A stretch of 64,000 nt of DNA from an uncultured Parcubacteria group bacterium (GTDB taxonomy: Bacteria > Patescibacteriota > Patescibacteriia > UBA9934 > CAMTUG01): positions 147,914 to 211,913 of the forward strand of contig CAMTUG010000001.1 in assembly GCA_947084965.1 (NCBI GenBank). Reading direction: 5' to 3'. Position 1 is the first letter of the stretch; each line of letters begins with the position of its first letter. Positions 4,333-64,000 of this stretch are shown here, piece after piece. A model generated the notes under the pieces. It was given only the letters and a program-made list of their open reading frames with translations, was not told the DNA's origin and did no database searches. The translations under genes were made by a program, and so were the position numbers.

Positions 4333-4343
4333 TATTTGCTGAA

Positions 4344-4380
4344 ATGGCGAAGCCGGTCGCGAAGTGTTCGCGGCCGGCTT
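4344..4380. terminator. bidirectional GC hairpin, left border of the first high-GC islet
   Basis: GAAGCCGGTCGCG-aagtgtt-CGCGGCCGGCTTTCGG. Confidence 0.45.
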
Positions 4381-4403
4381 TCGGTAGATGTGGAGAGTGT
4401 TGA

Positions 4404-5015
4404 TCAGGTCGTGGCGGGTTCCTCCTTGAGAGGAAGGGGAAGCCAGTCGAACGACAGCCAGCACTCACGATGGGTGCAGACTTCCGGTGGACGGCTCGAG
4501 CTGATCCCAGAGGGGTGCCCATTCCGACAGACCACGATCTGGGTCCCAGGGATCAGCCAGGACAACCCTTCGGTCGTGGCGAAGTGCAGGCGGACGATCC
4601 CGTCTCGCACCGGCTCGACCATGGCGACGATCTTGCCGCTGAGTCGGATGTCGCCCTCGAGGGCGAACCAGGTCGGCACGGCTTCGGCTGAGGGGCGGGG
4701 TTTGCCTGGCTTGAGCTTGCGCCAGCGCAGTCCACCGAGCGATGGGGCGTTGGCGATCTCGATTCCGTGATCGGTGTGCCCGAACCCGAGGCTGATCGTG
4801 AGGGCGAAGCGGAGCGGGACCCCCACACCCTGGAACATCAGGTATCGCCTCGGGCCGTGCGGCAGGGTGGCCCCCTTCGGGATGAAGGGGGAGTCGGTTG
4901 GGGCGACGAGGAGGACAGCGGGAATCGGTGAGGGCATCAAGATCTCCGGGAGATATGTGGTGAATCCACGGTTGATGATGTACCGCAGAGTGTGTGCAGA
5001 GTCAAGCGGAGTCAT
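4404..5015 (-). CDS. hypothetical protein encoded in high-GC islet 1
   Basis: 203-aa ORF with GC-rich codon usage (R/P/G-rich), unlike the flanking genes. Weak FGHTDHG motif that I cannot assign to a family. Confidence 0.4.
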   Translation of the reverse strand: MTPLDSAHTLRYIINRGFTTYLPEILMPSPIPAVLLVAPTDSPFIPKGATLPHGPRRYLMFQGVGVPLRFALTISLGFGHTDHGIEIANAPSLGGLRWRKLKPGKPRPSAEAVPTWFALEGDIRLSGKIVAMVEPVRDGIVRLHFATTEGLSWLIPGTQIVVCRNGHPSGISSSRPPEVCTHRECWLSFDWLPLPLKEEPATT

Positions 5016-5034
5016 TTGAACCGCGGAGTCAGGA

Positions 5035-5095
5035 TCACGTCACGACATGAATGGCCAGGAATCTATGTCGTGGCGGGATTCTGCGAAGCGGTGAG
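5035..5095. repeat. palindromic repeat, family C, copy 1
   Basis: CACGTCACGACAT-N16-ATGTCGTGGCGGGATTCTGC. A near-identical copy in inverted orientation lies at 56788-56850. Confidence 0.6.
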
Positions 5096-5104
5096 AAGGG
5101 CGAC

Positions 5105-5974
5105 TTAGATTTTAGCCACAACGATCCGGGCGCGATTGGTGAGGTCGTTCAATACGCGCACATCAGCGTTTGGAAAATAGTGTTTGACGACCGACGGGGC
5201 GCCCATCCGTTGATCAGGATCAATTTCAAAAATGACAGCGAGTTGGGCGGGGAAGTCGTTGCGACGCGTTTGGAGGGAGCGGAAGAGATCGTTGTAAAGC
5301 TCGAGGCCGTCAACGCCCCCGTCTAACGCGAGGCGCGGTTCATAATCGTGGACATCTGGTTGTGAGAGCGTCCATTGACGTGTGGATAAGTAGGGCAAGT
5401 TGGCGACGAGGATCACGCGTTCGAGCGGCTTGGTCTGTGTTGGATCGATCGGATCGATCAAGGATCCTGAAACAAACGTTATCCGATCATCGACGTTATT
5501 GATGACGGCGTTCTGTCGCGCCACCGTCAGTGCTCGATCGCTCACATCCACAGCGATGACCGGTAGTCCACTTTCGGCGGCGAGGGTCACCGCGATCGCT
5601 CCTGAGCCCGTACCGATGTCGATGAACACGGTGTCGCGTCCACCTGCCGCTTCCTGCAAGGCCGCTTCAACAACCTGTTCGGTTTCTGGACGTGGAATGA
5701 GAACGAATGGATTAACGACAAACGGACGGTTGTAAAAATCTTTCCAACCGAGGATGTAGGCGACCGGTTCGTGGCGGCTGCGGCGGTCAATCAATTGCTC
5801 AAAACGTTCGAGCGCCGCTTCACTCAGGGGCTGATCCATGTGGGTAAAGAGGTAGTTTTTTGGTCGATCAAGAACGTAGGCGAGCAAAAGCTGGGCGTCG
5901 AGCATCGGCGCATCGCTGACTCCGTGCTCCTTGAGTTTATTATTCGCCCAGGTGAGCGATTCCATGATCTGCAT
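5105..5974 (-). CDS. prmC: release-factor glutamine N5-methyltransferase PrmC/HemK
   Basis: SAM-binding motif DIGTGSGAIAV and catalytic NLPY motif. Directly downstream of prfA. The start is an internal Met; the ORF is open up to 6091. Confidence 0.85.
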   Translation of the reverse strand: MQIMESLTWANNKLKEHGVSDAPMLDAQLLLAYVLDRPKNYLFTHMDQPLSEAALERFEQLIDRRSRHEPVAYILGWKDFYNRPFVVNPFVLIPRPETEQVVEAALQEAAGGRDTVFIDIGTGSGAIAVTLAAESGLPVIAVDVSDRALTVARQNAVINNVDDRITFVSGSLIDPIDPTQTKPLERVILVANLPYLSTRQWTLSQPDVHDYEPRLALDGGVDGLELYNDLFRSLQTRRNDFPAQLAVIFEIDPDQRMGAPSVVKHYFPNADVRVLNDLTNRARIVVAKI

Positions 5975-6115: not shown

Positions 6116-7180
6116 TTACTGTGCGATGGGGCTAAAGCCTTCGCGCTCGGCTTTCTTTAAGTCTGCAATGACGCCCTCGATTTCACCTTCCATAATGCCT
6201 GGAAGGCCGTGATAGTTTTCGTTGATGCGGTGATCGGTTAAACGATCTTGCGGGAAGTTGTAGGTGCGGATCTTTTCTGAACGATCGCCAGTGCCGATTT
6301 GGCTCTTGCGCTCGGCCGATCGCTTGGCAGCTTCGCGGCGGCGTTGCTCATCGAACACACGCGCGCGCATCACGGTCATCGCCTTTTCCTTGTTCTGTTT
6401 TTGGGAACGCTCGTCCTGACACTGGACGGTAATGCCGGTCGGGATGTGGGTCATGCGGATCGCCGAGTAGGTGGTGTTGACGCTCTGTCCGCCGTTGCCC
6501 GAAGCGGTCGTCACTTCGATCTTTAGGTCGGCAGGATTCAATTCAAATTCGGTCTCTTCAATCACTGGCATCGTGGCAACGGTCACGGTTGAAGTGTGTA
6601 CGCGACCAGCTTTTTCCGTTTCTGGCACACGTTGCACGCGATGAACGCCGGATTCAAACTTTAAGTTGCTGTAGACGTTGTTGCCACCAATTTCAAAAAC
6701 AACCTCTTTAAATCCGCCGAGATCATTTTGACTTTGCGAATCTACTTCAATAGTCCAGCCTTTTTTCTCAGCAAACTTGGAATACATCCGAAACAGTTCC
6801 GCGGCAAAGAGCGCCGCTTCGTCACCTCCAGCGCCGGCACGAATTTCCATAATGATGCTCGCCTTGTCGAGTGGATCTGGCGGCACCAGCGCTTCTTCAA
6901 GCTTGGCGGTGAGGGAAGGAAGACCGGCTTTGATCGATGCGATTTCGGCTTCGGCCATCTCTTTCATTTCTGGATCAAGAAGCATCTCTTCGGCGGCGGC
7001 CAAGTTTGCGATCGCTTTTTCGTACTGATCTCCCAATTCAACAATACCGCGCACTTCACTGAAGGCCTGCCCGAGCGTCTTGGCTTTTTTCTGGTCGCGC
7101 AAAACAGCCGGGTCGCTCAGTTGCGTTTCCAGATTTTGCATCTCTTCGCGTTTTGTTTTGATCCCAGCGAGTAGGTCCAT
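6116..7180 (-). CDS. prfA: peptide chain release factor 1
   Basis: GGQ motif ([11 protein letters not shown]) and an RF1-type PxT-region (PET). Full-length class-I release factor architecture. Confidence 0.9.
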
Positions 7181-7246
7181 AAGGTGTTACGATCTTATCA
7201 CATAACAAAAGAACGCCGGCAAATTCCGAGCGTCCCTTTGCTGTCG

Positions 7247-7573
7247 TTACTTTTCGGCTTTTTTGGAAACGCGAACGGATTTCTTTTCTTCCACTTCGGT
7301 TTTCGGCCCGCTCGATTTGCGCTTTTCGGATTTGGCCGCGCGCTTGGTGGCACGGTTGACGACCGCTTCGGCCTTCTTGCCCATGCGTTCGCCGAACTTC
7401 TCGACGCGGCGGGCGGTGTCCAAAATGGTCTGCTTACCCGTGTAGAACGGGTGGCAAGCGGCACACAATTCGACCGAAATCGCCTGTTTGGTCGATCCGG
7501 TTTCATACTTAGCGCCACAAGCACAGCTGATCGTGGCATCCTCGAAATATTGGGGGTGAATCGTTGCTTTCAT
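7247..7573 (-). CDS. rpmE: 50S ribosomal protein L31 (Zn-ribbon type) with Lys-rich C-terminal extension
   Basis: MKATIHPQYFEDATISCACGAKYETGS...ELCAACHPFYTGKQ is canonical L31. Confidence 0.9.
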   Translation of the reverse strand: MKATIHPQYFEDATISCACGAKYETGSTKQAISVELCAACHPFYTGKQTILDTARRVEKFGERMGKKAEAVVNRATKRAAKSEKRKSSGPKTEVEEKKSVRVSKKAEK

Positions 7574-7599
7574 AGATGTGGCGGTATCCTAGCAGAACC

Positions 7600-8060
7600 C
7601 TCTAAAAAGTTCAAGAACCCTACCAGAAGTGGCGGGTTCTCGAGGAAGAAGTGAGGGAGTGTACGTTACGAATCGTATGAACGTTTGAGTAGCGGTGGAC
7701 ACGCGCATCGTTCATTCGGTTCGGGGACCCGACCGTTGGTGATCCGGTTCGTCCGTGCGCCGTGGTGTTTTCGGCGCTCCGTCCCTGTAGGCACTTCCTT
7801 GCGTTGGCGACCCATTCGCCCTCCTGCTCGTCTCGGCACCGTCGCGATTCGGGTGAGACGTCACAGGCAGCCATGCAGGAACGGTGGACTTCACCGTCAA
7901 CGGTTCAGGCCTTTCAACGACCCTCCCCACCGTTTAGGCACCTCCAAGCGGAGGCTCGCAAACGGCGAGGGTTGAGCACAGAGATTAACAAGTTTCTTTC
8001 GTTCCGTCAAGGGCCGGTAGGTTTGCCCCCAAAATTGAACCTGCCGCTGGGGAAATAGAC
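7600..8060 (-). ncRNA. GC-rich structured non-coding RNA candidate of about 450 nt (RNase P RNA-like?), ending in a hairpin+U-tract terminator just upstream of rpmE
   Basis: No plausible ORF in any frame (translations are R/P-rich junk). G+C is visibly higher than in neighbouring genes. On the minus strand it ends in the stem-loop GAGAACCC-N13-GGGUUCU followed by AACUUUUUAG. Minus-strand stretches weakly resemble bacterial RNase P conserved regions (GUGAAGUCCACCGUUCC; AAGGAAGUGCCUACAGGGA vs consensus AAAGUGCCACAGAAA), but no P4 pairing could be confirmed by eye. Confidence 0.35.
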
Positions 8061-8084
8061 GAAACGAGCTTCTTTGTTTAGAGT

Positions 8085-9113
8085 GTGATCCATATGGGAA
8101 CCCCTGTTGAACTCTTTAATTACGATCTGCCAGAATCGATGATCGCGCAGAAGTCCGTTGAGCCGCGGGATCACTCGCGGTTGATGGTTTTAGATCGGGA
8201 GAGCGGCACGATCGAACATCGAACGTTTTTTGAGATCGTCGATCTGCTTCGTGCTGGCGATGTGTTGGTCTTCAATAATACGAAGGTGTTTAAAGCGCGT
8301 TTAATCGGAGTGACAGACGTTTCGCCACAGGCGAATAAGTCTGTTATTGAACTCTTCTTGCTTCGTGAACGCGAAGGGAAGTGGGAAGCGATGGCGCGGC
8401 CGGGGAAGAAGCTTTCTGTTGGGGATGTGATTGATGTGGGGATCAAAGGGAAGATTACAGAGAAGAAGGAAGACGGAACGGTGATGATTGATTTTGGGAT
8501 GAGTCCTTCTGAAGTCCTTGCGTTTTGTGATGCCCATGGCGAAGTGCCGATTCCGCCATATGTGGTGAAATCAGAGCAGGCGACGGGGAATTATCAGACG
8601 GTATATGCCCGCGAGGTTGGAGCTGTGGCGGCGCCAACGGCAGGATTCCATTTCACCGAGCGTTTGCTCGATGCGCTCCGTGTCAAAGGGGTGCAGATAG
8701 AGTTTATAACGTTACATGTCGGGATCGGGACGTTTCGTCCGGTCAAAACAGCGACGCTCGAAGAGCATGTGATGCACGCTGAGTTTGTGCAGATCGATGC
8801 ACAGACGTCGGAGAGGATTCTGCTTGCGAAAAAAGAAGGGCGTCGGGTTATTGCGGTTGGCACAACAGTTGTGCGCGCACTCGAAGCGACGGGGGGCGAG
8901 CCGACGATGGGAGACGTCAACATTTTTATTATGCCGGGATACACGTTCAAAGTTATCGACGGGTTGATTACCAACTTTCATCTTCCAAAGTCAACGCTCT
9001 TGGCGCTCGTTTCTGCGTTTGCGGGAAGAGATCATGTGATGGCGGCGTACGAAGTTGCTAAAAAAGAAGGGTATCGATTTTATTCTTTTGGGGACGCGAT
9101 GTTTATCGCCTAA
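8085..9113 (+). CDS. queA: S-adenosylmethionine:tRNA ribosyltransferase-isomerase
   Basis: Full-length QueA-like sequence: N-term ELFNYDLPESMIAQ, C-term ...TNFHLPKSTLLALVSAF...GYRFYSFGDAMFI. Confidence 0.85.
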   Translation: MIHMGTPVELFNYDLPESMIAQKSVEPRDHSRLMVLDRESGTIEHRTFFEIVDLLRAGDVLVFNNTKVFKARLIGVTDVSPQANKSVIELFLLREREGKWEAMARPGKKLSVGDVIDVGIKGKITEKKEDGTVMIDFGMSPSEVLAFCDAHGEVPIPPYVVKSEQATGNYQTVYAREVGAVAAPTAGFHFTERLLDALRVKGVQIEFITLHVGIGTFRPVKTATLEEHVMHAEFVQIDAQTSERILLAKKEGRRVIAVGTTVVRALEATGGEPTMGDVNIFIMPGYTFKVIDGLITNFHLPKSTLLALVSAFAGRDHVMAAYEVAKKEGYRFYSFGDAMFIA

Positions 9114-9168
9114 ATAGCGAACGGACCGGCTCGAGTGGCGAGCAGGTCCGTTTGGCGCGAGGTTCCCC

Positions 9169-9558
9169 CTAGTGGCGGGAACGAAGGTGTCGGTTGAGGC
9201 GGCTGATCCAGAGCGCGTCCGGCATCGTCTGTCGGCCGACGTAGAGGAGGGCCGAGCACTGGGTGTCCGTCAGCAGGTTCTGGACGAGGCCGCGCTGGAT
9301 CAGGCGGTGGATGCGTTCGTAGTCCTCGGGGACTTCGGGGTGCTTGATGTAGTACATCGCCACCCGGAAGACCAGATCTGCATCAGACCCGAAGTTGAAG
9401 TCGTAGCGCTCGTCGATCACCACCTGGTAGGCGGCGGCGAAGAGGCGCTGCTGCAGGAGGAACCGGACGACTTCGGCGGGGTCGAGATCGACCGCCGGTT
9501 CCGGGGCGCGGGCGTGGAACGTCTCGCGCAGGTGAGGATGCGTAGCGGGGGATGCCAT
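9169..9558 (-). CDS. hypothetical protein (high-GC islet 2, downstream gene)
   Basis: 129-aa ORF with GC-rich codon usage. No recognisable motif. Confidence 0.4.
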   Translation of the reverse strand: MASPATHPHLRETFHARAPEPAVDLDPAEVVRFLLQQRLFAAAYQVVIDERYDFNFGSDADLVFRVAMYYIKHPEVPEDYERIHRLIQRGLVQNLLTDTQCSALLYVGRQTMPDALWISRLNRHLRSRH

Positions 9559-9730
9559 GGCGGGACCTCTTGGTGGGACGGGAATGGGCCGTGGGAATGG
9601 CCCGGAGGATCGGCTTGGGGCCGACGGGTGTATTAAGACATCAGTTTTAGTGCTTTGTCAAGCGGAAACCCGGGATGCTGCGTGCACCCCGGGTCCTGCG
9701 GCGACCCGAGTGGCGGGTCGCGCATCGAAG

Positions 9731-10084
9731 CTACTTGTTGGCGTCGGCACCGAAGAGGTCGTCATCGATCGCCGTGTTCTTGATCCCGGCGTGGCCGAGG
9801 TCGCCACGGAGGCCGGCGTCCGTCTGGGACAGCAGCTCCAGATCGACGCCGCGGCGGACGAGGGCGACGATTCGGGAGCGGTGATGCCCGGCGTTCTCCT
9901 CGATCAGCGCGCGGATGGCGGCCGTCAGCTCCTCCTTGTCCGGCCTGTACTTGGGGCGCAGACAGCAGTCGGCGGCGGCGGTCAGGCGCTTCTTCCCGAG
10001 GAGGCGCAGGACCTCGCTCGGCGGGGCGCCATTCTGGGGGTTCTGCTTGCGCTGGGGGCGGGGGGACGAGTTGCCGTTGGGCAT
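9731..10084 (-). CDS. hypothetical protein (high-GC islet 2, upstream gene)
   Basis: 117-aa ORF with a basic, low-complexity N-terminus. GC-rich. Confidence 0.4.
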   Translation of the reverse strand: MPNGNSSPRPQRKQNPQNGAPPSEVLRLLGKKRLTAAADCCLRPKYRPDKEELTAAIRALIEENAGHHRSRIVALVRRGVDLELLSQTDAGLRGDLGHAGIKNTAIDDDLFGADANK

Positions 10085-10298
10085 CGATTGACCTCATGTC
10101 TGGGAAGTCGTGGCATCTGTCGGAAGACACTTCCTTCAGGCACACCAACGACCCCGAGAGGGTAGGTCGTCTTGACGAAAAAGTCAATAATCTTTATACT
10201 TCCGCCATAAATCACACAGGTGTGACTAACGGTTTTGGGGCCTGCCCTGGCGTCTGCCAGGGTCCCAATCCCACACACCAACGAAAAAGGAAACTATT

Positions 10299-11136: not shown

Positions 11137-11245
11137 TAAATCCGAAATTATAAATCCGAAATCCGAAACAAAATCGAAACGGAAAGAGAAAAACTTTTTC
11201 TCACTCTGATTTTCTCTTTGTTTCGGATTTCCACATTCGAATTTT
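11137..11245. repeat. AT-rich long palindromic repeat, family A, copy 1
   Basis: Left arm AAATCCGAAATCCGAAACAAAATCGAAACGGAAAGAGAAAA; right arm TTTTCTCTTTGTTTCGGATTTCCACATTCGAATTT. Lies between rpsB and tsf. Confidence 0.7.
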
Positions 11246-11252: not shown

Positions 11253-11849
11253 ATGGCAGAGATTACAGCCGCTGCCGTTGCGCAGCTTCGTGAGATGACT
11301 GGTGCCGGAATGATGGACGCCAAAAAAGCGCTCGTCGAGGCGGAAGGGGATTTGGAAAAAGCTGCGGACGCCTTGCGCAAGAGTGGGGTGATCAAAGCGG
11401 GGAAGAAGGCGGAACGCGAAACCAAAGAAGGACGCGTTCACAGCTACATTCACAGCAACGGTAAAGTCGGCGTTCTCGTCGAAGTGTTGTGTGAAACGGA
11501 TTTCGTGGCGCGCAACGAAGCGTTCATCGAACTCTGCAACGACGTCGCCATGCACATCGCCGCTGCCGATCCGTTGTATCTCATCCGCGATCAGGTTCCA
11601 GCCAACGTCGTAGAAAAGGAACGCGAAATGGCTCTGGCGGAGATGGAAGGACAGATGAAACCGCAAGAGATCATGGACAAGATTGTGGAAGGAAAATTGA
11701 GCAAGTATTTCGCCGATGTCGTATTGATGGAGCAGGTCTTCGTTAAAGACGATACCAAGTCGGTCGAAGAGTACGTCAAAGGAAAGATCACCACCCTCGG
11801 TGAAAACATCCAGATCCGACGCTTCGCCCGTTTTCTGCTCGGAGCGTAA
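11253..11849 (+). CDS. tsf: elongation factor Ts (short form)
   Basis: ITAAAVAQLREMTGAGMMDAKKALVEAEGDLEKA and TDFVARNEAF motifs. Classical rpsB-tsf pairing. Confidence 0.95.
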   Translation: MAEITAAAVAQLREMTGAGMMDAKKALVEAEGDLEKAADALRKSGVIKAGKKAERETKEGRVHSYIHSNGKVGVLVEVLCETDFVARNEAFIELCNDVAMHIAAADPLYLIRDQVPANVVEKEREMALAEMEGQMKPQEIMDKIVEGKLSKYFADVVLMEQVFVKDDTKSVEEYVKGKITTLGENIQIRRFARFLLGA

Positions 11850-11865
11850 TTCACCGGTTAACAAG

Positions 11866-11890
11866 AGCCGCCTTTACGGGCGGCTTTTGT
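11866..11890 (+). terminator. intrinsic terminator after tsf
   Basis: GCCGCCTTTACGGGCGGC + TTTTGTG. Confidence 0.6.
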
Positions 11891-11902
11891 GTTATAATTT
11901 TA

Positions 11903-11930
11903 ACGTTGCGGGGCGCAGTGGCCCCGCCTA
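11903..11930 (+). repeat. GC-hairpin repeat, family B, copy 1
   Basis: GCGGGGCGCAGTGGCCCCGCCTATC. The gap ATG follows 14 nt downstream. Confidence 0.65.
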
Positions 11931-11942
11931 TCACATTCTCCT

Positions 11943-12947
11943 ATGCTTCGAGTTGCTATTAATGGGTTCGGACGGATCGGACGGAACGTATTTAAAGTTG
12001 GTTACGGCCGCAAAGGGGTTCAGTTTGTGGCGGTTAATGATTTAACGGAGCCGAAAATTTTGGCCCACCTGCTGAAATATGATTCGACGTTCCGCACCTG
12101 GAAGCACGAAGTAACGTACGATGATCACAATTTGTACATCGACGGCAAAAAACTCCCAGTTGTTGCTGAAATGGAGCCCGCCAAGCTTCCCTGGGGAAGA
12201 TATAAGGTAGACGTGGTGATTGAATCGACCGGTCGATTTACCGATGCAAAATCTGCTGGCGCGCATTTGGACGCGGGCGCCAAGAATGTGGTGATTTCCG
12301 CACCGGCCAAAGAAGTGCCGATGTATTTAATGGGCGTCAATCACAGCAAGCGAAAATCCTCGGAGAAGATCGTTAGTAATGCGTCCTGCACAACCAATTC
12401 AATCGCCCCGGTTGCTGAAATTGTCAACGAACTTTTTGGCATCAAGAAAGCGATGATGACGACAATTCATTCGGTGACGGCCGAACAAAATATCGTTGAT
12501 GGTTTGCCGCCGAAGTTGCATCCAGACATGCGTCGCGCCCGCTCGGCCCTGGTCAACATGGTGCCGACCTCGACCGGCGCGGCCAAGGCGACGATTGAAG
12601 CGATCCCTGAATTGAAAAATAAATTCGATGGGATCGCGGTGCGTGTGCCAACCATTGACGTTTCCCTCTCGGATTTTACATTCTTACTCAAGAAAAAAAC
12701 GACAGCAGAAGAGATCAACAAGGCCTTTGTCAAAGCCGCGGCCCAACCGCGCTGGAAAGGAATCCTTGGTGTGACCGACGAACCGCTGGTGTCAACTGAT
12801 TTTATCGGGAGTACATTTTCGAGCGTCGTCGATTTGCAGATGACCCGTGTCGTGGACGGTGACTTAGTAAAAGTTCTCGCCTGGTACGACAACGAATGGG
12901 GCTACAGTGTCCACCTGATGGACATGGCCGAACATATTGGAAAATAG
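11943..12947 (+). CDS. gap: glyceraldehyde-3-phosphate dehydrogenase
   Basis: INGFGRIGR NAD-binding motif and SCTTNS active-site Cys. Full length. Confidence 0.95.
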   Translation: MLRVAINGFGRIGRNVFKVGYGRKGVQFVAVNDLTEPKILAHLLKYDSTFRTWKHEVTYDDHNLYIDGKKLPVVAEMEPAKLPWGRYKVDVVIESTGRFTDAKSAGAHLDAGAKNVVISAPAKEVPMYLMGVNHSKRKSSEKIVSNASCTTNSIAPVAEIVNELFGIKKAMMTTIHSVTAEQNIVDGLPPKLHPDMRRARSALVNMVPTSTGAAKATIEAIPELKNKFDGIAVRVPTIDVSLSDFTFLLKKKTTAEEINKAFVKAAAQPRWKGILGVTDEPLVSTDFIGSTFSSVVDLQMTRVVDGDLVKVLAWYDNEWGYSVHLMDMAEHIGK

Positions 12948-18267: not shown

Positions 18268-18381
18268 AATACGAAATACGAAATCCGAAACAATTTATAA
18301 TGGTGAAAAGAGAAAACGGTTTTCAGATTCTGATTTTTCTCTTGTTTTGTATTTCGATATTCGAATTTCGAGTTTTGCCGT
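18268..18381. repeat. AT-rich long palindromic repeat, family A, copy 2
   Basis: AAATACGAAATACGAAATCCGAAACAATTT ... TTTTGTATTTCGATATTCGAATTTCGAG. Lies between gpmI and the PAP2 gene. Confidence 0.7.
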
Positions 18382-29965: not shown

Positions 29966-29966
29966 A

Positions 29967-37508: not shown

Positions 37509-37526
37509 GTTATAATTGCCAGCACT

Positions 37527-49761: not shown

Positions 49762-49769
49762 GATAGGCG

Positions 49770-51027: not shown

Positions 51028-51103
51028 TGGTGGACCGGACGGGAATCGAACCCGTAATTCCAGGTGTCAAGCCAGGCGGAGTTACCCTTACTCCCACCGG
51101 CCC
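51028..51103 (-). tRNA. tRNA with CCA encoded; anticodon loop CUUGACA (apparent anticodon UGA, Ser) on a class-I scaffold; identity uncertain
   Basis: Minus-strand read GGGCCGG-UG-GGAG-UAAGGGUAA-CUCC-G-CCUGG-CUUGACA-CCUGG-AAUU-ACGGG-UUCGAUU-CCCGU-CCGGUCC-A-CCA. Acceptor, D and T arms are canonical (GTTCGATTCC T-loop). The anticodon stem has a central U.U mismatch and position 37 is C. Confidence 0.6.
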
Positions 51104-55291: not shown

Positions 55292-56770
55292 GTGCGGACA
55301 CAGTACGGAGAACACCGATTTCTCGAGGTGGTCCCAGGCGCTCTCGTCTGGGCCACCTTTGTGTTAGCGATCGTTCTTTCCTTTGTAGCCCCGATCCCGG
55401 TGATCATTTTTATTATCGTCTTTGATCTGTACTGGCTTTTTCGAGTGATCTATTTCGTGACCTACCTGATCGCTTCGTACCGTCGATATAAAAAGGAGAT
55501 TCTGGTCGATTGGTTTGCGGAGCTTCAGAAAATCCCTAACTGGCAGAGGATTCATCATGTCGTGTTTTTGCCAACGTACAAAGAAGGATATGAGATTTTA
55601 AAGGCGGCCGTTGTATCTCTGGTGAAATCGACGTATCCGAGCGATCGGATGATCGTCGTTTTGGCCGGGGAAGAACGCGATCGCGACGCGTTTGAAAAGA
55701 TGGCTAAACGTTTGGGGGAGGAATACGGTAAAGCCTTCGCCAAGTTTTTGATCACGGTACACCCAAAAAATTTGCCAGACGAAATTCCTGGGAAAGGATC
55801 GAACTTGGCGTATGCGGCCTCTCAGGTGAAGCCATTGATTGAAGAGATGCAGATCCCTGTGGAGGATGTGGTCGTAAGCGCTTTTGATGTCGATACGATC
55901 GCTCATCCACACTATTTCGCGCGGCTGACCCAAATCTATCTGACCACGCCAGATCCGACCCGATCGTCGTATCAACCACTGACCACGTTCAGCAACAATA
56001 TTTGGAATGCGACCGCTCCGGTGCGTGTCGCTTCGTTTGGAACGACCTTTTGGCTCTTAACCGAACTGGCGCGTCCGGAACGGAGCTGGACCTTTTCTTC
56101 ACACAGCATGTCTTGGAAGATGCTGCTCGACGTTGGATTTTGGGAGAAGAATATGGTGAGTGAAGATTCTCGTATCTTCTTGCAAGGATTGCTGCATTAT
56201 CACGGCGATTATCGGGTTACCCCGATCTATCTTCCTGTGTCCATGGACGCGGTCACCGGGTCGACCTACGTCGAGTCGCTCAAGGCGTTGTACAAACAAC
56301 AGCGTCGCTGGGCTTGGGGGGTTGAACACTTTCCGTACATGGTGCCGCGATTGTTGGCGGACAGATTGATGCCGATGCGTACAAAAATAAAGTACATCTG
56401 GAATCACATGGAAGGGATGTATACCTGGGGCACAGCGCCAATTCTGATCTTCATTCTCGGCTATCTACCGTTGTGGGTTTCGCGCGAAGCATCTTCTGTG
56501 CTTGTCGCTTCCACGCCGTTCACCCTTGAGTGGATCATGCGTTTGGCGATGGTCGGTGTGTTTGTTTCCGGGATCCTCGGCATGCTGATGCTCCCTGATC
56601 GCCCGAAGCACGTCAAACCCTACACCTGGGTGGTGATGCTTCTCCAGTGGGCATTGATGCCGTTTACCTTTATTTTATTCGGTGCTTTTCCTGCGATCGA
56701 CGCGCAGACGCGTTTGATGCTCGGTCGCTATCTTGGGTTCAACGTGACCAAGAAGAACGCGCGCAAGTAA
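55292..56770 (+). CDS. processive family-2 glycosyltransferase, integral membrane
   Basis: D,D,D and QQRRW (QxxRW) motifs. N- and C-terminal TM bundles. Confidence 0.8.
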   Translation: MRTQYGEHRFLEVVPGALVWATFVLAIVLSFVAPIPVIIFIIVFDLYWLFRVIYFVTYLIASYRRYKKEILVDWFAELQKIPNWQRIHHVVFLPTYKEGYEILKAAVVSLVKSTYPSDRMIVVLAGEERDRDAFEKMAKRLGEEYGKAFAKFLITVHPKNLPDEIPGKGSNLAYAASQVKPLIEEMQIPVEDVVVSAFDVDTIAHPHYFARLTQIYLTTPDPTRSSYQPLTTFSNNIWNATAPVRVASFGTTFWLLTELARPERSWTFSSHSMSWKMLLDVGFWEKNMVSEDSRIFLQGLLHYHGDYRVTPIYLPVSMDAVTGSTYVESLKALYKQQRRWAWGVEHFPYMVPRLLADRLMPMRTKIKYIWNHMEGMYTWGTAPILIFILGYLPLWVSREASSVLVASTPFTLEWIMRLAMVGVFVSGILGMLMLPDRPKHVKPYTWVVMLLQWALMPFTFILFGAFPAIDAQTRLMLGRYLGFNVTKKNARK

Positions 56771-56787
56771 ACTTGACCTCCTCACCG

Positions 56788-56850
56788 CTACGCAGAATCC
56801 CGTCACGACATAGATTCTTGGTCATTAATGTCGTGACGGGATTCCGCTCC
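56788..56850. repeat. palindromic repeat, family C, copy 2 (inverted relative to copy 1)
   Basis: GCAGAATCCCGTCACGACAT-agattcttggtcatta-ATGTCGTGACGGGATTCCGC. The loop is the reverse complement of the 5035 copy's loop. Confidence 0.6.
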
Positions 56851-56934
56851 GCGGTTCGGAGGGCACAAGTTAGCCCCAACGCGGAGCAGACTTCGACCAG
56901 CGACATTAAATGACTAAAAAGATGTCGCGGGTCG

Positions 56935-58988: not shown

Positions 58989-59993
58989 ATGTTCTCCAAA
59001 AAAATCGCCATCGACCTCGGAACCACGACCGTGCTGGTGTACATGCCCAAGCGCGGTATTATTATCCATGAACCGTCGGTCGTGGCTATTTCAACGATCG
59101 ATAAAAAAGTGTTGGCCGTAGGGAAAGAAGCCAAAGACATGCTCGGTCGCACTCCAGACACGATCGTGGCCAAGCGGCCGCTCAAAGACGGGGTGATTGC
59201 TGACTACAAAACAACCGAAGCGATGCTCCGTTATTTTATTAACAAAGCGCTCGGGGGGATCCGCTTGTTCCGTCCAGAAGTGATGGTCGCTGTTCCTGGC
59301 GGGATCACCTCGACCGAGCGCCGTGCAGTGATCGATGCTGCAGTTTCGGCTGGAGCCAAAGCGGCCTACATCATCAAAGAACCGATCGTCGCCGCGATCG
59401 GCGCTAACATTCCGATCGGCTCACCGAGCGGACATATGGTGATCGACATTGGTGGTGGGACGGCCGAGATGGCGGTGCTTTCGCTCGGGGGGATCGTCTC
59501 TTCTGCTTCCGTGCGCATCGGCGGGGTCAAAATTGACGCCGCGATTCAGGAATTCATTCGCCGCAAGTATGGGTTGGCGATTGGCGAGCGCACTAGCGAA
59601 GAGATTAAGATCAAAATTGGTTCAGCGATGTACCTGCCCGAAAAGATGACGCTTGAAATCAAAGGCCGCGACATGATTAGCGGTTTGCCAAAGTTTTTAG
59701 AAGTCACAAGTGACGATGTGACCGAAGCGATTCAAAACGAACTTGAGGGGATTATTGCGACGGTGAAAGAAGTGTTGCACAAAACGCCGCCGGAACTGTC
59801 TGCGGACGTGATGGACAAGGGGATCGTGCTGACCGGGGGATCATCACAGCTGCGTAATTTGGATCAGCTGATCGCCGAAGCGACCGGCGTGCCGACCTAC
59901 GTCGCGGATGAACCGCAGATGTGCGTGGCTAAGGGAACGGGGATCGCGCTCGAAAATTTGGAAGCGTACAAGCGAAGTGTATTTAGCTCTTAA
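58989..59993 (+). CDS. mreB: rod-shape determining actin homologue MreB
   Basis: IAIDLGTTTVLVY...EPSVVA... DGVIAD... GGGTAE are actin-fold phosphate/adenosine motifs. Confidence 0.9.
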   Translation: MFSKKIAIDLGTTTVLVYMPKRGIIIHEPSVVAISTIDKKVLAVGKEAKDMLGRTPDTIVAKRPLKDGVIADYKTTEAMLRYFINKALGGIRLFRPEVMVAVPGGITSTERRAVIDAAVSAGAKAAYIIKEPIVAAIGANIPIGSPSGHMVIDIGGGTAEMAVLSLGGIVSSASVRIGGVKIDAAIQEFIRRKYGLAIGERTSEEIKIKIGSAMYLPEKMTLEIKGRDMISGLPKFLEVTSDDVTEAIQNELEGIIATVKEVLHKTPPELSADVMDKGIVLTGGSSQLRNLDQLIAEATGVPTYVADEPQMCVAKGTGIALENLEAYKRSVFSS

Positions 59994-60112
59994 ATTCGAA
60001 ATACGAAATTCGAAATTCGAAATAAACTCGAATCGAAAATGGGAAGTTTGAAAATTTTCACTCCTTCCTCTTTTCCGATTGTTTCGGATCTCGGATTTCG
60101 AATTTCGTATTT
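59994..60112. repeat. AT-rich long palindromic repeat, family A, copy 5
   Basis: TAAATTCGAAATACGAAATTCGAAATTCGAAATAAACTCGAATCGAAAATGGGAAGTTTGAAAA ... TTTTCCGATTGTTTCGGATCTCGGATTTCGAATTTCGTATTTAT. Confidence 0.75.
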
Positions 60113-61156
60113 ATGACCACCTTTGGTATAGAAGTCAATCCTGCATCCCGCGAGCAGAAGACGGGGACCGAGTGGTACACCGTTAAGCTGGTCGAAGCGA
60201 TGCAAAAGCAGGTGCGTCCTGGCGACGAGGTACGGTTGTATTCGCGTGAGAATTTGAAATGGCCGTTCAAGCGATTATGGACTCAGCTTCGGTTGAGTTG
60301 GGAAATGCTCCGTCGTCCACCGGATGTGTTGTTCGTGCCGGCCCACGCCGTGCCGCGTGTGCATCCGAAAAAAACGGTGACGACCGTTCATGACCTAGGG
60401 TTTAAACGGTTTCCTCATTTGTATGAATCAAAGGCGCGTCGCTATTTAGAAGCGACGACCAAGTTTGCGGTAAAGAAGTGTGCAAGAATTATCACACCGT
60501 CGGAGTTTACAAAGCACGAGTTGGTCGAGTTGTATCACGCCGATCCGGACAAGATTGTCGTCACTCCGCTCGCCCCGATCATGTCTCCGCTTACCACTAA
60601 CCAATTACCACTTTCCCATACCTTTCTGACAATGTCGCGCATCGAGTCAAAAAAGAATATCGCCGCACTTATCCGCGCCTTTGAGATTTTTAAGGAGCGC
60701 CGTGGGGTAGGGGATCCGTTCGAGTTGTATCTTGCCGGCAAACCAGGATTTGGCTACGGCGCGATCAAACAGTTGATCGATCGTTCACCAGCACGGGCGT
60801 CGATTAAGGAACTCGGTTTTGTGACCGATGAACAGGCCCGCAATCTTTTTGCGAGTGCCTATGCCTATGTCTATCCTTCTTGGTACGAGGGATTTGGAAT
60901 CAGCGCCGTCGACGCCATGCAATTTGGGACGCCGATCATCGCCAGCAACATTCCAGCGCTGCACGAAGCCGCGGGCGAAGCAGCGGTGTATTTTGATCCC
61001 AACTCACCGCAAGAACTCGCTCGGCACATGTCCGAGCTGGCAGATAATCCAACGCTGCGCAATGAACTTGCACAAAAGTCTCTTGTCCAAGTCGCCCAGT
61101 TTTCTTGGGAAAAAACAGCAGAGCAGACGTGGGGAGTTTTACGTTCGTTGACTTAA
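60113..61156 (+). CDS. family-1 (GT4) glycosyltransferase
   Basis: C-terminal ...YPSWYEGFGISAVDAMQFGTPIIAS... is the EX7E GT4 signature. Confidence 0.8.
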   Translation: MTTFGIEVNPASREQKTGTEWYTVKLVEAMQKQVRPGDEVRLYSRENLKWPFKRLWTQLRLSWEMLRRPPDVLFVPAHAVPRVHPKKTVTTVHDLGFKRFPHLYESKARRYLEATTKFAVKKCARIITPSEFTKHELVELYHADPDKIVVTPLAPIMSPLTTNQLPLSHTFLTMSRIESKKNIAALIRAFEIFKERRGVGDPFELYLAGKPGFGYGAIKQLIDRSPARASIKELGFVTDEQARNLFASAYAYVYPSWYEGFGISAVDAMQFGTPIIASNIPALHEAAGEAAVYFDPNSPQELARHMSELADNPTLRNELAQKSLVQVAQFSWEKTAEQTWGVLRSLT

Positions 61157-61295
61157 ATTCGAAATACGAAATCCGAAATACGAAACAAATTCGAACTGGA
61201 AAAGGGAAGTTTGCAAACGTTCTCCCGTTTCCTTTTTCCGATTGTTTCGTATTTCGATATTCGGATTTCGTATTTTCCTGCTATACTAAACCTAT
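61157..61295. repeat. AT-rich long palindromic repeat, family A, copy 6
   Basis: TAAATTCGAAATACGAAATCCGAAATACGAAACAAATTCGAACTGGAAAAGGGAAGTTTGCAAA ... TTTTTCCGATTGTTTCGTATTTCGATATTCGGATTTCGTATTTTCC. Confidence 0.75.
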
Positions 61296-62066
61296 ATGGA
61301 TCAACTGACACGCGAACTGACGCATCTCGGTCTCAGTGAAAAAGAGGCGGCGGTGTATGTGGCGGCATTGCAACTCGGGCCGTCGCCGGTGCAAGAGATT
61401 TCTAAGCACGCCAAAGTCAATCGGGCGACGACCTATGTGATGATCGAAACGTTGATTCTGCGTGGACTGATTTCGAGCACGCAAAAAGACAAGAAGCGCA
61501 TCTTCATCGCCGAAGCGCCAGACCGTTTGCTCGCCATCATGCGTCTGCAAAAAAAGGAGCTGGAGGAAAAAGAATCCGAGTTGGCAAAAGTCCTTCCGAA
61601 GCTCAACGCCCTGTTTAATCGATCAGGAGAAAAGCCGGAGGTGCGCTATTTGGAAGGCCGCGAAGGGCTAGAGATGTTGCGTCGTCATTTTGAGGAATTG
61701 CAGGGCGAAACGGTGCAGATCATCGGGTATGACGCGTTTACAAAAGTGATGGAGCACGAAACGACGCATAAGCATCGTCAAGTGTTAAAAAAGAAACGTG
61801 CCCCGATTCGAGCGATTTTGGTCAGTACTCGGAGCCGTGCGGATTTGGATCCGCAGTTTCAAGAAACGCTCGGTGAGGTCTTTGAGTACCGCGTCGTTCA
61901 TCCAAAAGATTTTCCGTTCAAAGTTGAAGGGGAGGTGACGATTCGCGCGGACAAAATTCATATGTTCACCTACGCGGTTACGCCGCTGGCGGTAGAAATT
62001 CGCTCATCGGTGTTGGCAGATGCTTTGCGCGGAATGTTCGAACTTGCTTGGAAGGCCGCTAAATAA
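61296..62066 (+). CDS. TrmB-family transcriptional regulator
   Basis: N-terminal LGLSEKEAAVYVAALQLGPSPVQEISKHAKVNRATTYVMIETL wHTH plus a TrmB-like C-domain. Confidence 0.7.
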   Translation: MDQLTRELTHLGLSEKEAAVYVAALQLGPSPVQEISKHAKVNRATTYVMIETLILRGLISSTQKDKKRIFIAEAPDRLLAIMRLQKKELEEKESELAKVLPKLNALFNRSGEKPEVRYLEGREGLEMLRRHFEELQGETVQIIGYDAFTKVMEHETTHKHRQVLKKKRAPIRAILVSTRSRADLDPQFQETLGEVFEYRVVHPKDFPFKVEGEVTIRADKIHMFTYAVTPLAVEIRSSVLADALRGMFELAWKAAK

Positions 62067-62890
62067 CTTCGAAGGCCCCACCGAGTGAGGTGAGGCCTGT
62101 GGTCGCGGACGCGGTCGTGCGTCGTCAGTGCTCGAGGACCCCCTCGCCCGTTTCTGGTCCTTGCCAGATCTGCCACCCTGGCATCCGTTTGCGCACGATC
62201 GGCCGTGCGACGTCCTTTTTCCCGTAGCCGGGAAAGGATTGTGGAGACGAATCGGGAGCGGCGGCTCCGTTGTCTCCGAAGCGGATGCGCGGGGTGGGGA
62301 TTCGGGGCGGACTGGCGGCGAGCATGACGACCTCTTAATGGCCACTTCAGACAGGAACTGTGGCCTCACCATGGGTCGAGATGACCCAATGGGACCTGAC
62401 AAGGTAGCAAGGAATTTCGGCCGTGTCAAGCTTTCGTGACAGGAAAAGTGAAAAATTAAAGGATATAAAGGAGAAAAAATGCAATCGTGTTTGGAGATAT
62501 TGACAATCTCCCTTTAATCGTGATAGCTTCATCGGTCCCGCAAGGGGCACCGCGTTTGGCCTTAAATCCAAACGTTGGGGAGCTCAAGGCCCGCCGCAAG
62601 GCGGGTTTTGTGTTGAAAAGCAAAAGCCTCTGCTGGGGAGAACAGAGGTTTTTGCATTCTCAGAGACAACGAAGTGGTCTTCGTTCTCTCATTCGAGCCG
62701 CCGTTTGAAGTGATCAGTGGTACCGGCTTCTGAAGCCGGTACCAGGACTGGATGTTTATGATTTTTCCTCCACACAACGCGCGAGTACTTGTTACCGGCT
62801 CCGGGAGCCGGTAACGGGTGATTCGTGCATTCTGTGGAGGAGGGGACGAGCCGTAGTGCCCGTCCCGCTCCAACGTGGGTGTGGTCTTGT

Positions 62891-63955
62891 TCAGTTCACG
62901 AGGGCCTCCTCGACTTTCGACGCCGAGATGGACACCTTGGTCATCCACTCGGCACCGAGCTTCGCCTTCAGCACCGCCTTGAGGTCCGCCACCGTCGTCG
63001 GCTTGATGAGGCCGAAGTTGACGATGCCGAGCTCCTCGAGGAGGGTCACGACCTTGCGGACCTTGCGGCCGGAGTCGAGCTTGCTCCAGGGGAACATGAT
63101 CGTCTGCGCCTTGGGGGCCTCGACGACCACTTCGGGGGTCGGGGGTTCGACGATCGGCTCCGGCGCGATCTCCTCGGCCTCGGTCTGCACCTCCTCGGTG
63201 ATGGCCTCGACCTCGTCGGTCGGGGCCGGGTTGGGGTTGATCTCCGGCTCGGGCGCCGGCGCCTGCTCCGCGGCCGGCGGGGCGTCGGTGGCCTCGTTCG
63301 CCGCGGCCGGGGCGTTGTTCTCGACGGTCGGGGCCGCGACCTTCTGGTCGTAGTACCCGGCAGCCTTGCGGATGCCGTGGCACTCCTGGCAGAAGATCGG
63401 CTTGCTCTTGTCGAGCTTGTTTTTCGACGCCGCCAGCCCCCCGCAGTCGCTGCAGTGGTAGTGGAAGTGCTGCTTGCGATCGTAGGTGCAGCACTTGCGG
63501 TAGTCCTGCGTCGGCGGGATCATCTGCTCGAACGACCACGGGACCGGCGCGGGGATCTTCTTCACCGTGCGCACGTACTCGCACTTCGCCCACTCCGCCT
63601 CGAGCTCGGCCATTCGCTCCTGCCGGGCCTCCTCGTAGTCGTCCTCGTAGTCCTCCAGCTCCTCCACGGTGTACTGGTGGACCTCACCGCCGTCGAACCC
63701 CTGCCACGGGTCCTCGTCCGCCTCGAGCACGATCGTGATCGTCGTGCGGTCGAAGTCCTCGCTGTCGTCGTCCCACTTCGACTGCACGTAGGTGATGGAC
63801 TCGATCTCGTCCACCTCGTCCTCCGTGCTCGGCTCGCGGTTCACGGCGTCGCGGATCCGCAGGCCGCCGAGGGTGTTGTCCATGTCCGCCGGGTCGAGGT
63901 TGTGGGCCTCGAGGTAGGCGATCATGGCCTGGGACAGCTTGGGGCGGCGGGCCAC
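62891..63955 (-). CDS. hypothetical acidic protein with Cys/His cluster (high-GC islet 5); may continue beyond the window
   Basis: Long GC-rich ORF. D/E-rich N-half, CCTYDRKQHFHYHCSDCGG...CQECHG metal-binding-like cluster, A/P/E-rich linker. Confidence 0.45.
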   Translation of the reverse strand: MARRPKLSQAMIAYLEAHNLDPADMDNTLGGLRIRDAVNREPSTEDEVDEIESITYVQSKWDDDSEDFDRTTITIVLEADEDPWQGFDGGEVHQYTVEELEDYEDDYEEARQERMAELEAEWAKCEYVRTVKKIPAPVPWSFEQMIPPTQDYRKCCTYDRKQHFHYHCSDCGGLAASKNKLDKSKPIFCQECHGIRKAAGYYDQKVAAPTVENNAPAAANEATDAPPAAEQAPAPEPEINPNPAPTDEVEAITEEVQTEAEEIAPEPIVEPPTPEVVVEAPKAQTIMFPWSKLDSGRKVRKVVTLLEELGIVNFGLIKPTTVADLKAVLKAKLGAEWMTKVSISASKVEEALVN

Positions 63956-64000
63956 GCCCTTCCAGTAGTGGGCGCGGTTGCCGCCCGGGGTCTTCTCGGC

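Follow-up and report, generated by a model that had tools for sequence, protein, structure and literature searches.

Base composition and gene content of the islets

The window analysed here is a stretch of 64,000 nucleotides from the genome of an uncultured Parcubacteria group bacterium, and our subject is a set of five short G+C-rich islets within it, numbered 1 to 5 along the stretch, together with the genes they carry. An earlier note on this DNA had pointed to such islets and to the unfamiliar minus-strand open reading frames (ORFs) in them. Sliding-window GC and codon statistics bear this out, and every ORF that was named is present. The window as a whole has a GC content of 53.0% (standard deviation, sd, 0.057 across 200-bp windows). 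GC reaches at least 0.62 (range 0.62-0.68) in 4351-5000, 9101-10150, 39751-41000, 41951-43000 (a transporter gene), 44351-44800, 62051-62400 and 62801-64000, and lesser GC-rich segments lie at 6301-6500, 7701-7950 and 30501-30800. At third codon positions (GC3), 47 backbone genes have a GC of 0.598 (sd 0.052, maximum 0.72), and the islet ORFs have 0.80-0.97, or z = 3.9-7.2 against those genes. Their second positions (GC2) have only 0.38-0.52, which amounts to a three-base periodicity of the coding type. The features of the islets are listed below, hairpins with their minimum free energy (MFE) and z against shuffles, and genes with any Shine-Dalgarno (SD) site:

4348-4383, minus strand: GC hairpin directly 3' of the 203-aa ORF (MFE -22.2 kcal/mol, z -5.4)
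4404-5015, minus strand: islet 1 gene, 203 aa, GC3 0.80 (0.78-0.95 in frame over 4955-4476)
5030-5106: 73-nt palindromic repeat ('family-C palindrome') between the 203-aa ORF start and the prmC stop; second copy at 56770-56865
9120-9152, minus strand: GC hairpin separating the stop codons of queA and the 129-aa ORF (MFE -21.5 kcal/mol, z -4.1)
9169-9558, minus strand: islet 2 gene A, 129 aa, GC3 0.87, SD AGAGG 7 nt before ATG
9559-9730, minus strand: islet 2 spacer; hairpin at 9697-9724 following the 117-aa gene, and TTGACA promoter-like site serving the 129-aa gene
9731-10084, minus strand: islet 2 gene B, 117 aa, GC3 0.93, SD GAGG 7 nt before ATG, divergent from rpsB
39855-39892, minus strand: GC hairpin separating the stop codons of metK and the 325-aa ORF (MFE -23.8 kcal/mol, z -4.4)
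39932-40909, minus strand: islet 3 gene, 325 aa, GC3 0.90, SD GGAG 6 nt before ATG
41933-43099, minus strand: major facilitator superfamily (MFS) transporter gene, GC3 0.77; Pfam MFS_1 (PF07690), 83 bits against a cut-off of 33.4, residues 28-346
44335-44360, minus strand: GC hairpin 3' of the 145-aa ORF (MFE -25.1 kcal/mol, z -4.0)
44373-44810, minus strand: islet 4 gene, 145 aa, GC3 0.92, SD-like GGAAGG before ATG, promoter-like site at 44862-44834
62067-62890: GC-elevated noncoding stretch between trmB and the islet 5 gene, GC 0.57, several hairpins including 62839-62871 (z -3.6)
62891-64000, minus strand: islet 5 gene, GC3 0.97; a 354-aa ORF at 62891-63955, being the 354 C-terminal residues (370 with the stretch open to the window end) of a 450-aa protein

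The islet ORFs are genuine, separately transcribed units of one or two genes. They are counted as real on the strength of GC3/GC2 periodicity, SD sites 6-8 nt before the start codon in five of the six, stable 3' hairpins, homologues for the five ORFs that were searched and, for the 325-aa protein, an AlphaFold2 (AF2) model with a predicted local distance difference test (pLDDT) score of 91. Of the six 3' hairpins, five are much more stable than shuffled sequences (z -3.6 to -5.4), in line with the earlier description of islets bounded by GC hairpins; the one at 9697-9724 is not significant (z -0.45). The weakest of the six is the 203-aa ORF of islet 1, the exception without a clear SD site, whose protein gave no matches in Pfam, PHROG, PADLOC, NCBIfam or PDB sequences; the exhaustive homologue search described below covered the other five. 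Long plus-strand ORFs over the islets were also considered as genes and rejected as antisense shadows: four of the five have a GC of 0.8-0.9 at first codon positions (GC1), and the one over islet 1 lacks coding periodicity.

Some details of the earlier description need adjusting. Islet 5 had been drawn from about 62100; the part at 62801-64000 does carry a coding ORF, but 62051-62400 is GC-elevated without coding periodicity, which is absent throughout 62004-62429. The ORF itself, reported as a 354-aa acidic/Cys-His protein 'or longer', is real but is the C-terminal part of the 450-aa protein, whose gene runs about 243 nt beyond the window end. The elevated GC ascribed to the MFS gene is confirmed by its GC3 and by the segment at 41951-43000. 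All six islet ORFs are indeed on the minus strand, but a plus-strand gene at 54606-55286 belongs to the same compositional class and is considered further below.

Assembly and coding status

The islet borders are abrupt, and one Logan contig stops inside islet 2, at window position 9753. Both observations would suit the possibility that the islets are products of chimeric assembly, which the earlier note had raised as an alternative, or else GC-rich noncoding RNA genes taken for ORFs. That same contig (L081, run ERR3478686), however, is identical to window positions 6248-9753 at 100%, a span that starts at prfA, takes in queA and the complete 129-aa gene, and reaches the 3' end of the 117-aa gene. 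A second contig from that run (L082) matches 61247-64000 at 100% and is 760 nt longer, adding the N-terminus of the 450-aa protein and an 85-aa ORF. Both contigs cross backbone-islet junctions, and junctions of the same types recur in contigs of relatives from three other sequencing runs. For islets 2, 4 and 5, chimerism is refuted by these identical contigs and by the recurrence of the junctions in other samples. The strong three-base periodicity and the conserved protein families, one with a confident fold, likewise tell against an artefact, and no Rfam family matched the islets; the sole match in an Rfam scan of the window is a tRNA (tRNA-Ser) at 51028-51103. We therefore regard an artefact of either kind as practically dismissed.

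Nature of the G+C excess

The G+C excess of the islets is almost wholly synonymous. The pooled islets have GC1 0.645, GC2 0.431 and GC3 0.925, and reference genes with GC3 > 0.9 have GC1 0.72 and GC2 0.47. Third positions in the islets are 50-60% C and 30-47% G; ATC, TTC, TAC, AAC, GAC, CAC, AAG and CAG each account for 88-100% of the synonymous codons in their family, and GAG for 80%. CTC outnumbers CTG (0.65 vs 0.31), a preference that the genes of the host share. The amino acid composition resembles that of mid-GC organisms (Lys 4.0%, Ile 6.0%), and the enrichment in Arg, Pro and Ala noted previously is present but only modest (Ala 10.3 vs 9.1%, Arg 7.1 vs 5.8%, Pro 6.9 vs 4.6%).

The dinucleotide signature of the islets differs from that of the backbone by a delta* of 181 (null 34, sd 11), and the nearest genomes by this measure have about 70% GC. 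When backbone proteins were recoded with islet codon usage, the recoded sequences lay at a delta* of 156 from the real backbone and only 36 from the islets, the shift being reproduced with r = 0.98. The signature is thus a consequence of synonymous choice, and we reject it as an independent sign of foreign origin.

Two other general causes were considered and set aside. Translational optimisation does not fit, as the translation genes of this genome favour GAA (78%), GGT, CGT, CCA and TTG, and the islets deplete all of these. A replication-strand effect does not fit either: other minus-strand genes have ordinary GC3, and the plus-strand gene shares the trait. C exceeds G at third positions relative to the coding strand, on both DNA strands. 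Noncoding DNA inside or beside the islets has a GC of 0.57 vs 0.47 in other intergenic DNA (0.65 in the islet 2 spacer), and the excess stops sharply at the edges of the transcription units.

Homologues, taxonomic range and host

Word-indexed homologue searches with the joined islet proteins, and with the 325-aa protein alone, returned no matches. These empty results reflect the limited reach of the index and not true absence, because an exhaustive HMMER scan of 1.84 billion representative proteins, with five islet proteins as queries (all but the 203-aa one), did find homologues. For the 325-aa protein there are about 27 representative homologues, with 20-37% identity in the alignment. The 145-aa protein has the homologue P0019 (34-35% identity), the 129-aa protein P0032 (32-35%) and the 117-aa protein P0034 and P0036 (32-40%, depending on the alignment). 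The earlier statement that the proteins have 'no recognisable family' therefore stands for Pfam, NCBIfam, PHROGs and PADLOC, where the only library matches of the islet ORFs were weak zinc-ribbon ones, but not for the exhaustive search, in which every one of the five queries had a few remote homologues.

All of the named islet homologues are from Candidatus Kerfeldbacteria or the Patescibacteria group, so that, as far as named homologues go, the islet genes appear restricted to Patescibacteria, the Candidate Phyla Radiation (CPR). The host itself is an Uhrbacteria-like CPR bacterium; an E. coli origin was considered, and megablast gave no match. Its backbone genes include prmC, prfA, rpmE, queA, rpsB, tsf, metK, lexA, a Y-family polymerase gene, xseAB and rplJL. 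The nearest GTDB species representative is a Patescibacteria metagenome-assembled genome (MAG; here L001), whose MetK has just 52% identity. Beside islet 4, the RecB-like nuclease gene has many relatives, among them P0041-P0052 at 64-72% identity, and the named ones are from Candidatus Uhrbacteria or the Patescibacteria group.

A phage origin was also considered. Searches of IMG/VR, of GenBank phages (INPHARED, tblastn) and of PLSDB plasmids (tblastn) gave no islet matches; PHROGs gave only matches with E > 0.01, and PADLOC no match to an islet protein. A sub-alignment locus scan with the 325-aa family found four metagenome loci and no viral ones. The idea that the islet genes are phage-derived ORFans, or a prophage remnant, finds no support in the PHROGs, IMG/VR, INPHARED and BFVD fold searches.

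According to the earlier note, the islets could be horizontally acquired cargo from a high-GC donor with Actinobacteria-like codon usage, possibly carried by the repeat elements. Their GC3 of 0.87-0.97 and C-ending codons are indeed like those of high-GC bacteria, and some CPR bacteria live on Actinobacteria. Against this, the named homologues are all from Patescibacteria, and orthologues occupy the same slots in relatives (next section). The excess is nearly all synonymous, the preference for CTC over CTG is that of the host, and the Lys and Ile contents are unlike a 70% GC proteome. The palindrome also occurs where there is no islet, and no flanking repeats were found. We consider this origin very improbable.

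The encoded proteins

In islet 2, the 129-aa protein is small and soluble, without a hydrophobic segment, and is identical to P0002; it is weakly paralogous to the 117-aa protein, likewise small and soluble (BLASTP E 2e-4; hhalign E 8e-4 over 78 columns). The AF2 model of the 325-aa protein, built from a 28-sequence family alignment (pLDDT 91, predicted TM-score, pTM, 0.84), has an N-terminal five-helix bundle followed by an alpha/beta domain. Foldseek comparison of this model with the PDB and BFVD gave no match (best TM about 0.2), PDB sequence and profile searches were empty, and so was a look-up for an exact record. The conserved residues of the family are mainly aromatic or hydrophobic (Y110, W113, G151), with GKGRAVDFK in most members, and the protein is probably not an enzyme. 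The 145-aa protein of islet 4 has a soluble N-terminal domain and a C-terminal hydrophobic helix (residues 122-145), the helix being shared with its orthologue P0019, and is predicted to be a tail-anchored membrane protein.

The 450-aa protein of islet 5 is identical to P0001. Its AF2 model has a mean pLDDT of 60, too low for a fold search, and shows a long helix (23-83) and a C-terminal three-helix domain (380-450); a four-Cys zinc ribbon at about 260-295 lies between disordered acidic and P/E/A-rich linkers. P0018, P0026 and P0027 also have the three-helix domain, with 39-48% identity, and in P0018 and P0026 it is duplicated. Upstream of the gene and past the window end, the longer Logan contig encodes an 85-aa membrane ORF with GC3 0.83 (L082:94-351, about 64410-64667 in window numbering, minus strand). 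Because this GC3-rich ORF adjoins the 450-aa gene, islet 5 reaches at least 0.7 kb past the window.

Conserved slots in related genomes

Islets 2 to 5 and the MFS gene lie in the following slots between backbone genes (PPIase, peptidyl-prolyl isomerase):

queA to rpsB: islet 2
metK to a 243-aa gene: islet 3
243-aa gene to the PPIase gene: MFS gene
PPIase gene to the RecB-like nuclease gene: islet 4
trmB onward: islet 5

Contigs of related bacteria indicate that the slots are conserved and their occupancy variable. In L095 (SRR22387996), P0034, 36% identical to its counterpart in the window, is divergent from rpsB (77% identical) and tsf, exactly as the 117-aa gene is in the window, and has GC3 0.87 vs 0.71-0.78 in its neighbours. 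In L097 (SRR22388172), P0032 (32-34%) adjoins queA (79% identical), with GC3 0.84 vs 0.59. The terminator-then-TTGACA layout of the islet 2 spacer recurs at the ends of both contigs, and the two-gene arrangement appears to be conserved. In L096 (SRR29492100), P0019 (34%) lies on the opposite strand between the PPIase (66-71%) and RecB-like nuclease (69%) genes, with GC3 0.81 vs 0.52-0.56 in both flanks.

The longest comparison is with L099 (SRR8931243), a 21-kb locus collinear with window positions 24262-55283, its proteins mostly 52-84% identical. Here the gap between metK and the next gene is 42 nt, and that between the PPIase and RecB-like genes 62 nt, so that islets 3 and 4 are absent. An MFS gene does occupy its slot in the same orientation, but is only 26% identical to that of the window and has GC3 0.82 vs about 0.68 in the backbone. 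The outgroup L001 is without islets 3 and 4 and without the MFS gene; upstream of rpsB it has an unrelated 141-aa ORF with GC3 0.92, in a genome of 47% GC.

The window, L096 and L099 are about equidistant (RecB-like proteins 69-72% identical), and L001 is an outgroup at 48-51%. Occupancy thus differs by locus, islets 3 and 4 being absent from L099 and L001, and the islet 2 genes being present in L095 and L097 and the islet 4 gene in L096. Position and orientation are shared at both flanks in L096, at one flank each in L095 and L097, and for the MFS gene in L099. What fills the slots is 26-39% identical; the directly flanking proteins are 66-79% identical.

The 325-aa family behaves differently. 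In other Patescibacteria its members sit in unrelated neighbourhoods, and for this gene at least lateral movement is therefore plausible. The GC3 of the homologue was within the range of its neighbours in four of five loci (0.38 in a contig of 45% GC, 0.58, 0.69 and 0.70); in L098 it was 0.74 vs 0.58 in the single neighbour.

The proposal that the islets are horizontally acquired cargo can now be divided. The accessory behaviour expected of cargo is seen for islets 3 and 4, which are missing from the syntenic loci of two relatives, and lateral movement is plausible for the 325-aa gene; the Actinobacteria-like donor, the recent import and the carriage by repeats find no support. Against a recent import stand the GC3-rich occupants of the same slots in relatives that are about equally distant (the islet 2 and 4 orthologues and the MFS gene), with silent sites near saturation. 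As for carriage, the copy of the palindrome at 56770-56865 has no islet beside it, so repeat and islets are not linked. Direct or inverted repeats longer than 10 nt were not found around the islets, the longest being 7-10 nt and inside coding sequence. No recombinase or other mobility gene was recognised beside the islets, where some of the flanking genes were scanned and the rest named by eye or by synteny with L099. No tRNA serves as an anchor, the only one in the window being that at 51028-51103.

High GC3 is kept across lineages

The plus-strand gene mentioned above gives a view of how old the trait is:

54606-55286, plus strand: 226-aa gene with mechanosensitive-channel transmembrane helices (Pfam PF05552, E 4e-21), GC3 0.80

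This gene was not among the islets of the earlier note because its GC1 and GC2 are low and its total GC is ordinary. The orthologue in L099 is 72% identical, as conserved as core genes, and has GC3 0.84. At four-fold sites of conserved residues, the two genes are 39% identical, vs 37% expected from composition. For core genes the corresponding values are 31-45% vs 27-35% expected, L10 and L7/L12 being higher. With four-fold identity near expectation, silent sites have turned over since the split between the window and L099. An ancestral gene that is GC3-rich in both lineages in spite of silent saturation must therefore have its GC3 maintained by something. Across 24 orthologue pairs, GC3 is correlated (r = 0.65, p = 6e-4). 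High GC3 is a maintained, gene-specific trait. The same logic extends to the islet 2 and 4 genes, if these are positional orthologues of their counterparts in relatives.

Single genes of this kind were also seen at other CPR loci, with GC3 0.86-0.92 on backgrounds of 39-54% GC: L059:4379-5275 (minus), L001:175-600 (plus), and L089:9381-9926 and 11461-12597 (minus). Several of them encode secreted or membrane proteins. High-GC outlier windows made up 3.2% in CPR loci vs 0.6% in non-CPR loci, in a small, non-random sample. Within the limits of such a sample, there is a hint that GC3-rich single genes are widespread in CPR. Literature searches found no CPR-specific report of GC3-rich islets.

What maintains the composition

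We consider the islets best explained as native hypervariable accessory genes that occupy conserved slots and are subject to a persistent local force favouring G+C. Our confidence in this is moderate, evenly balanced between acceptance and doubt. The high GC would accordingly be read as a persistent, locus-specific equilibrium, and a recent high-GC donor whose mark has yet to ameliorate would not be needed. Among relatives at comparable distances, the same slot can contain a highly divergent allele, nothing, or a barely related gene of the same superfamily. Hypervariable alleles would be exchanged among related lineages by homologous recombination, and GC-biased gene conversion (gBGC) acting on them would raise their GC3. 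The sharp borders could be reconciled with conversion if mismatches, which are its substrate, are concentrated in the hypervariable alleles.

Conversion on exchanged alleles is the mechanism we prefer within this explanation and carries the greater part of its weight. Taken by itself it is a tentative proposal, rather unlikely to be the whole answer, and we place it only slightly ahead of selection on the transcripts. A broader statement leaves the mechanism open: in Uhrbacteria-like CPR bacteria, a persistent G+C-raising force confined to single transcription units, whether focused conversion or mRNA selection, may drive slot genes to near-saturated GC3. We see this as possible, while leaning somewhat against it.

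A number of observations weigh against native genes under a persistent force. Gene conversion in bacteria is usually credited with only a few GC points; the GC3 excess here is 27-37 points in five of the six ORFs and 20 in the 203-aa ORF, far above the usual effect. In the flanking core genes, GC3 does not rise at the ends next to the islets; a diffuse regional process would be expected to leave such a rise. Fast evolution alone does not give high GC3, because the 243-aa gene (41065-41796, plus strand), which encodes an acidic protein with two hydrophobic segments, is fast-evolving (37.5% identical to its positional orthologue in L099) and has an ordinary GC3 of 0.53. For L095 and L097, positional orthology is judged from a single flank in each, on short contigs, and the comparative loci cover islets 2, 3 and 4 only. 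Finally, the unrelated neighbourhoods of the 325-aa family and an MFS gene at 26% identity in one slot have to be accommodated, and the latter looks more like replacement than vertical divergence.

These last points lead to repeated lateral replacement, in which the slots are refilled with cassettes from unsampled high-GC Patescibacteria, their plasmids or their viruses, and the GC is imported with them. The sharp GC borders, which coincide with whole transcription units including their untranslated parts, would follow naturally, as would the variable presence among equidistant relatives. Backbone GC3 already varies between about 0.54 and 0.78 within the clade, which makes a still richer member conceivable, and the islets' dinucleotide signature is like that of genes in genomes of about 70% GC. 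That signature, however, is fully reproduced by synonymous recoding of native proteins, and the exhaustive protein scan contained no homologue from a high-GC organism. The 325-aa homologues mostly have the GC3 of their neighbours; GC1, GC2 and amino acids are mid-GC-like, and the overshoot of GC3 is the reverse of what an ameliorating import would show. Among the genes identified there is no integrase, att-like repeats and matches to phages or plasmids were likewise absent, and the vertically inherited, core-like 226-aa gene, with its GC3 of 0.80 and 0.84, is left unexplained. On balance we think such replacement unlikely, though it deserves serious consideration.

Selection on transcripts would need neither transfer nor conversion bias. 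The mRNAs would be kept G+C-rich, with a C-rich coding strand, and the benefit could lie in their stability or structure, in protection from AU-specific RNases or toxins, or in Rho-dependent control. The enrichment does span the whole transcription unit, including spacers and parts resembling untranslated regions, and ends with it; C exceeds G at third positions of the coding strand for genes on both DNA strands; and the trait is heritable across lineages. Raghavan, Kelkar and Ochman (PNAS 2012) reportedly found GC-rich versions of genes to be fitter in Escherichia coli, independently of translation, and such a benefit would favour this explanation. It gives no reason, however, why these genes should be affected and not ribosomal-protein or other highly expressed ones (GC3 0.65-0.69), and it leaves the extreme protein divergence and the pattern of presence and absence unexplained. 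As the cause of the islets we judge it improbable.

Comparison with known systems

Like classical genomic islands, the islets are blocks of deviant composition between housekeeping genes, with accessory genes of which some are absent from relatives. Unlike them, they are GC-richer and not AT-richer than the host; no integrase, tRNA anchor or flanking repeats were recognised (in partly scanned flanks); and orthologues of the islet genes hold the same slots and are GC3-rich even though silent sites are saturated. In the amelioration framework, reportedly due to Lawrence and Ochman in 1997, imports decay toward host composition. The islets depart from it in that their GC3 overshoots GC1 and GC2, opposite to an ameliorating import.

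Replacement-type flexible islands, said to have been described by Rodriguez-Valera, Lopez-Perez and colleagues, hold divergent content at the same locus and are exchanged through conserved flanks. The likeness lies in fixed positions with highly divergent or non-orthologous alleles (26% for the MFS gene and 32-39% for the islet genes, vs 66-79% for the flanks). The islets differ in consisting of one or two genes instead of multi-gene clusters, in having no glycosylation or surface-polysaccharide functions, and in that some slots are empty.

Bacterial ORFans, reportedly characterised by Daubin and Ochman in 2004, are short, fast-evolving and lineage-restricted, and the islet genes share these properties (short, fast-evolving and taxonomically restricted). 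Typical ORFans are AT-richer than their genome and often phage-derived, whereas the islet genes are strongly GC3-rich and no phage link was found.

A single ORF followed by an imperfect hairpin also recalls the cassettes of integrons. In contrast to these, there is no array, no integrase was recognised among the ORFs scanned (not every ORF was), and each islet unit has its own SD and promoter-like site. The islet hairpins moreover resemble the ordinary GC hairpins of this genome in their AGTGG-type loops, which suggests a genome-wide terminator style. A GC hairpin of the form GCGGGGC-(N)CAGTG-GCCCCGC, followed by CTAT, is found at gene ends at 11902-11931, 30133-30157, 37477-37506 and 49761-49790.

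Genes under gBGC are characterised by raised GC3, depletion of AU-ending optimal codons and slightly GC-richer adjacent noncoding DNA (Lassalle et al. 2015, PMC4450053). In the islets, too, the excess is at third positions, AU-ending optimal codons are depleted and nearby noncoding DNA is GC-richer; the differences are the size of the excess (20-37 GC3 points) and the sharpness of the borders. Altogether, the pattern is one of unusual flexible islets, GC3-saturated where AT-richness is the norm, with conserved slots and a composition kept over long divergence.

Other features of the window

The region at 7600-8060 had also been listed as GC-elevated. GC is indeed raised there, but the region is a noncoding gap without coding periodicity: the 511 nt between rpmE and queA (7574-8084) have a GC of 0.57, with a peak of 0.63 over 7701-7950. 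This gap gave no Rfam match, no folding signal (over 7640-8060) and no blastx similarity to the collected proteins; possibly it is what is left of a slot gene that has decayed. Structured RNA in this gap and in the noncoding stretch at 62067-62890 was considered and found no support, as Rfam matches were weak (E > 0.3 in both) and folding of 7640-8060 gave z -0.5 and -0.7.

A low-GC stretch of about 7.3 kb at 30963-38200 (GC 0.43-0.50) is absent from the otherwise collinear L099. It encodes a Mrr-like restriction endonuclease, a MazG-like protein, a Schlafen-type (DUF2075-like) helicase, a pair of HTH_3 and ImmA/IrrE (M78) proteins, and a YgjP-like metallopeptidase, and is a classical AT-rich defence island, in contrast with the GC-rich islets.

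AT-rich palindromic intergenic repeats of about 110-125 nt occur at 11137-11244, 18262-18368, 41793-41911, 48749-48870, 59989-60112 and 61152-61275. They are built on AAATACGAAAT(T/C)CGAAA motifs, lie between convergent or tandem genes, and may be bidirectional terminators or an element like the repetitive extragenic palindromes (REP). Within an ORF at 23763-24194, at least eight tandem copies of a 21-nt unit (23786-24016) encode a heptad-like repeat (approximately QQVDNRF). An SOS-type cassette on the minus strand (28362-30837), kept in L099, comprises lexA (30211-30837), two small ORFs and a Y-family (IMS) polymerase gene (28362-29588).

Implications

Compositional outliers are routinely taken as signs of recent transfer or of contamination, and CPR MAGs are often 'cleaned' accordingly. 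The islets described here are part of the genome, recur in relatives and are GC3-rich after silent saturation; GC deviation alone would therefore mislead both the inference of horizontal gene transfer and the curation of bins. If their composition is native and maintained, the islets would reverse the rule that ORFans and flexible genes are AT-rich, and would make GC deviation an unreliable marker of transfer in CPR. If biased conversion on hypervariable loci is the true cause, the slots would offer an unusually strong natural test of a debated force. The islet genes also define several uncharacterised families known only from CPR, one of them with a confident fold that has no known structural relative. 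Their hypervariability makes them candidates for a part in host interaction or in conflict, in the life of these episymbionts.

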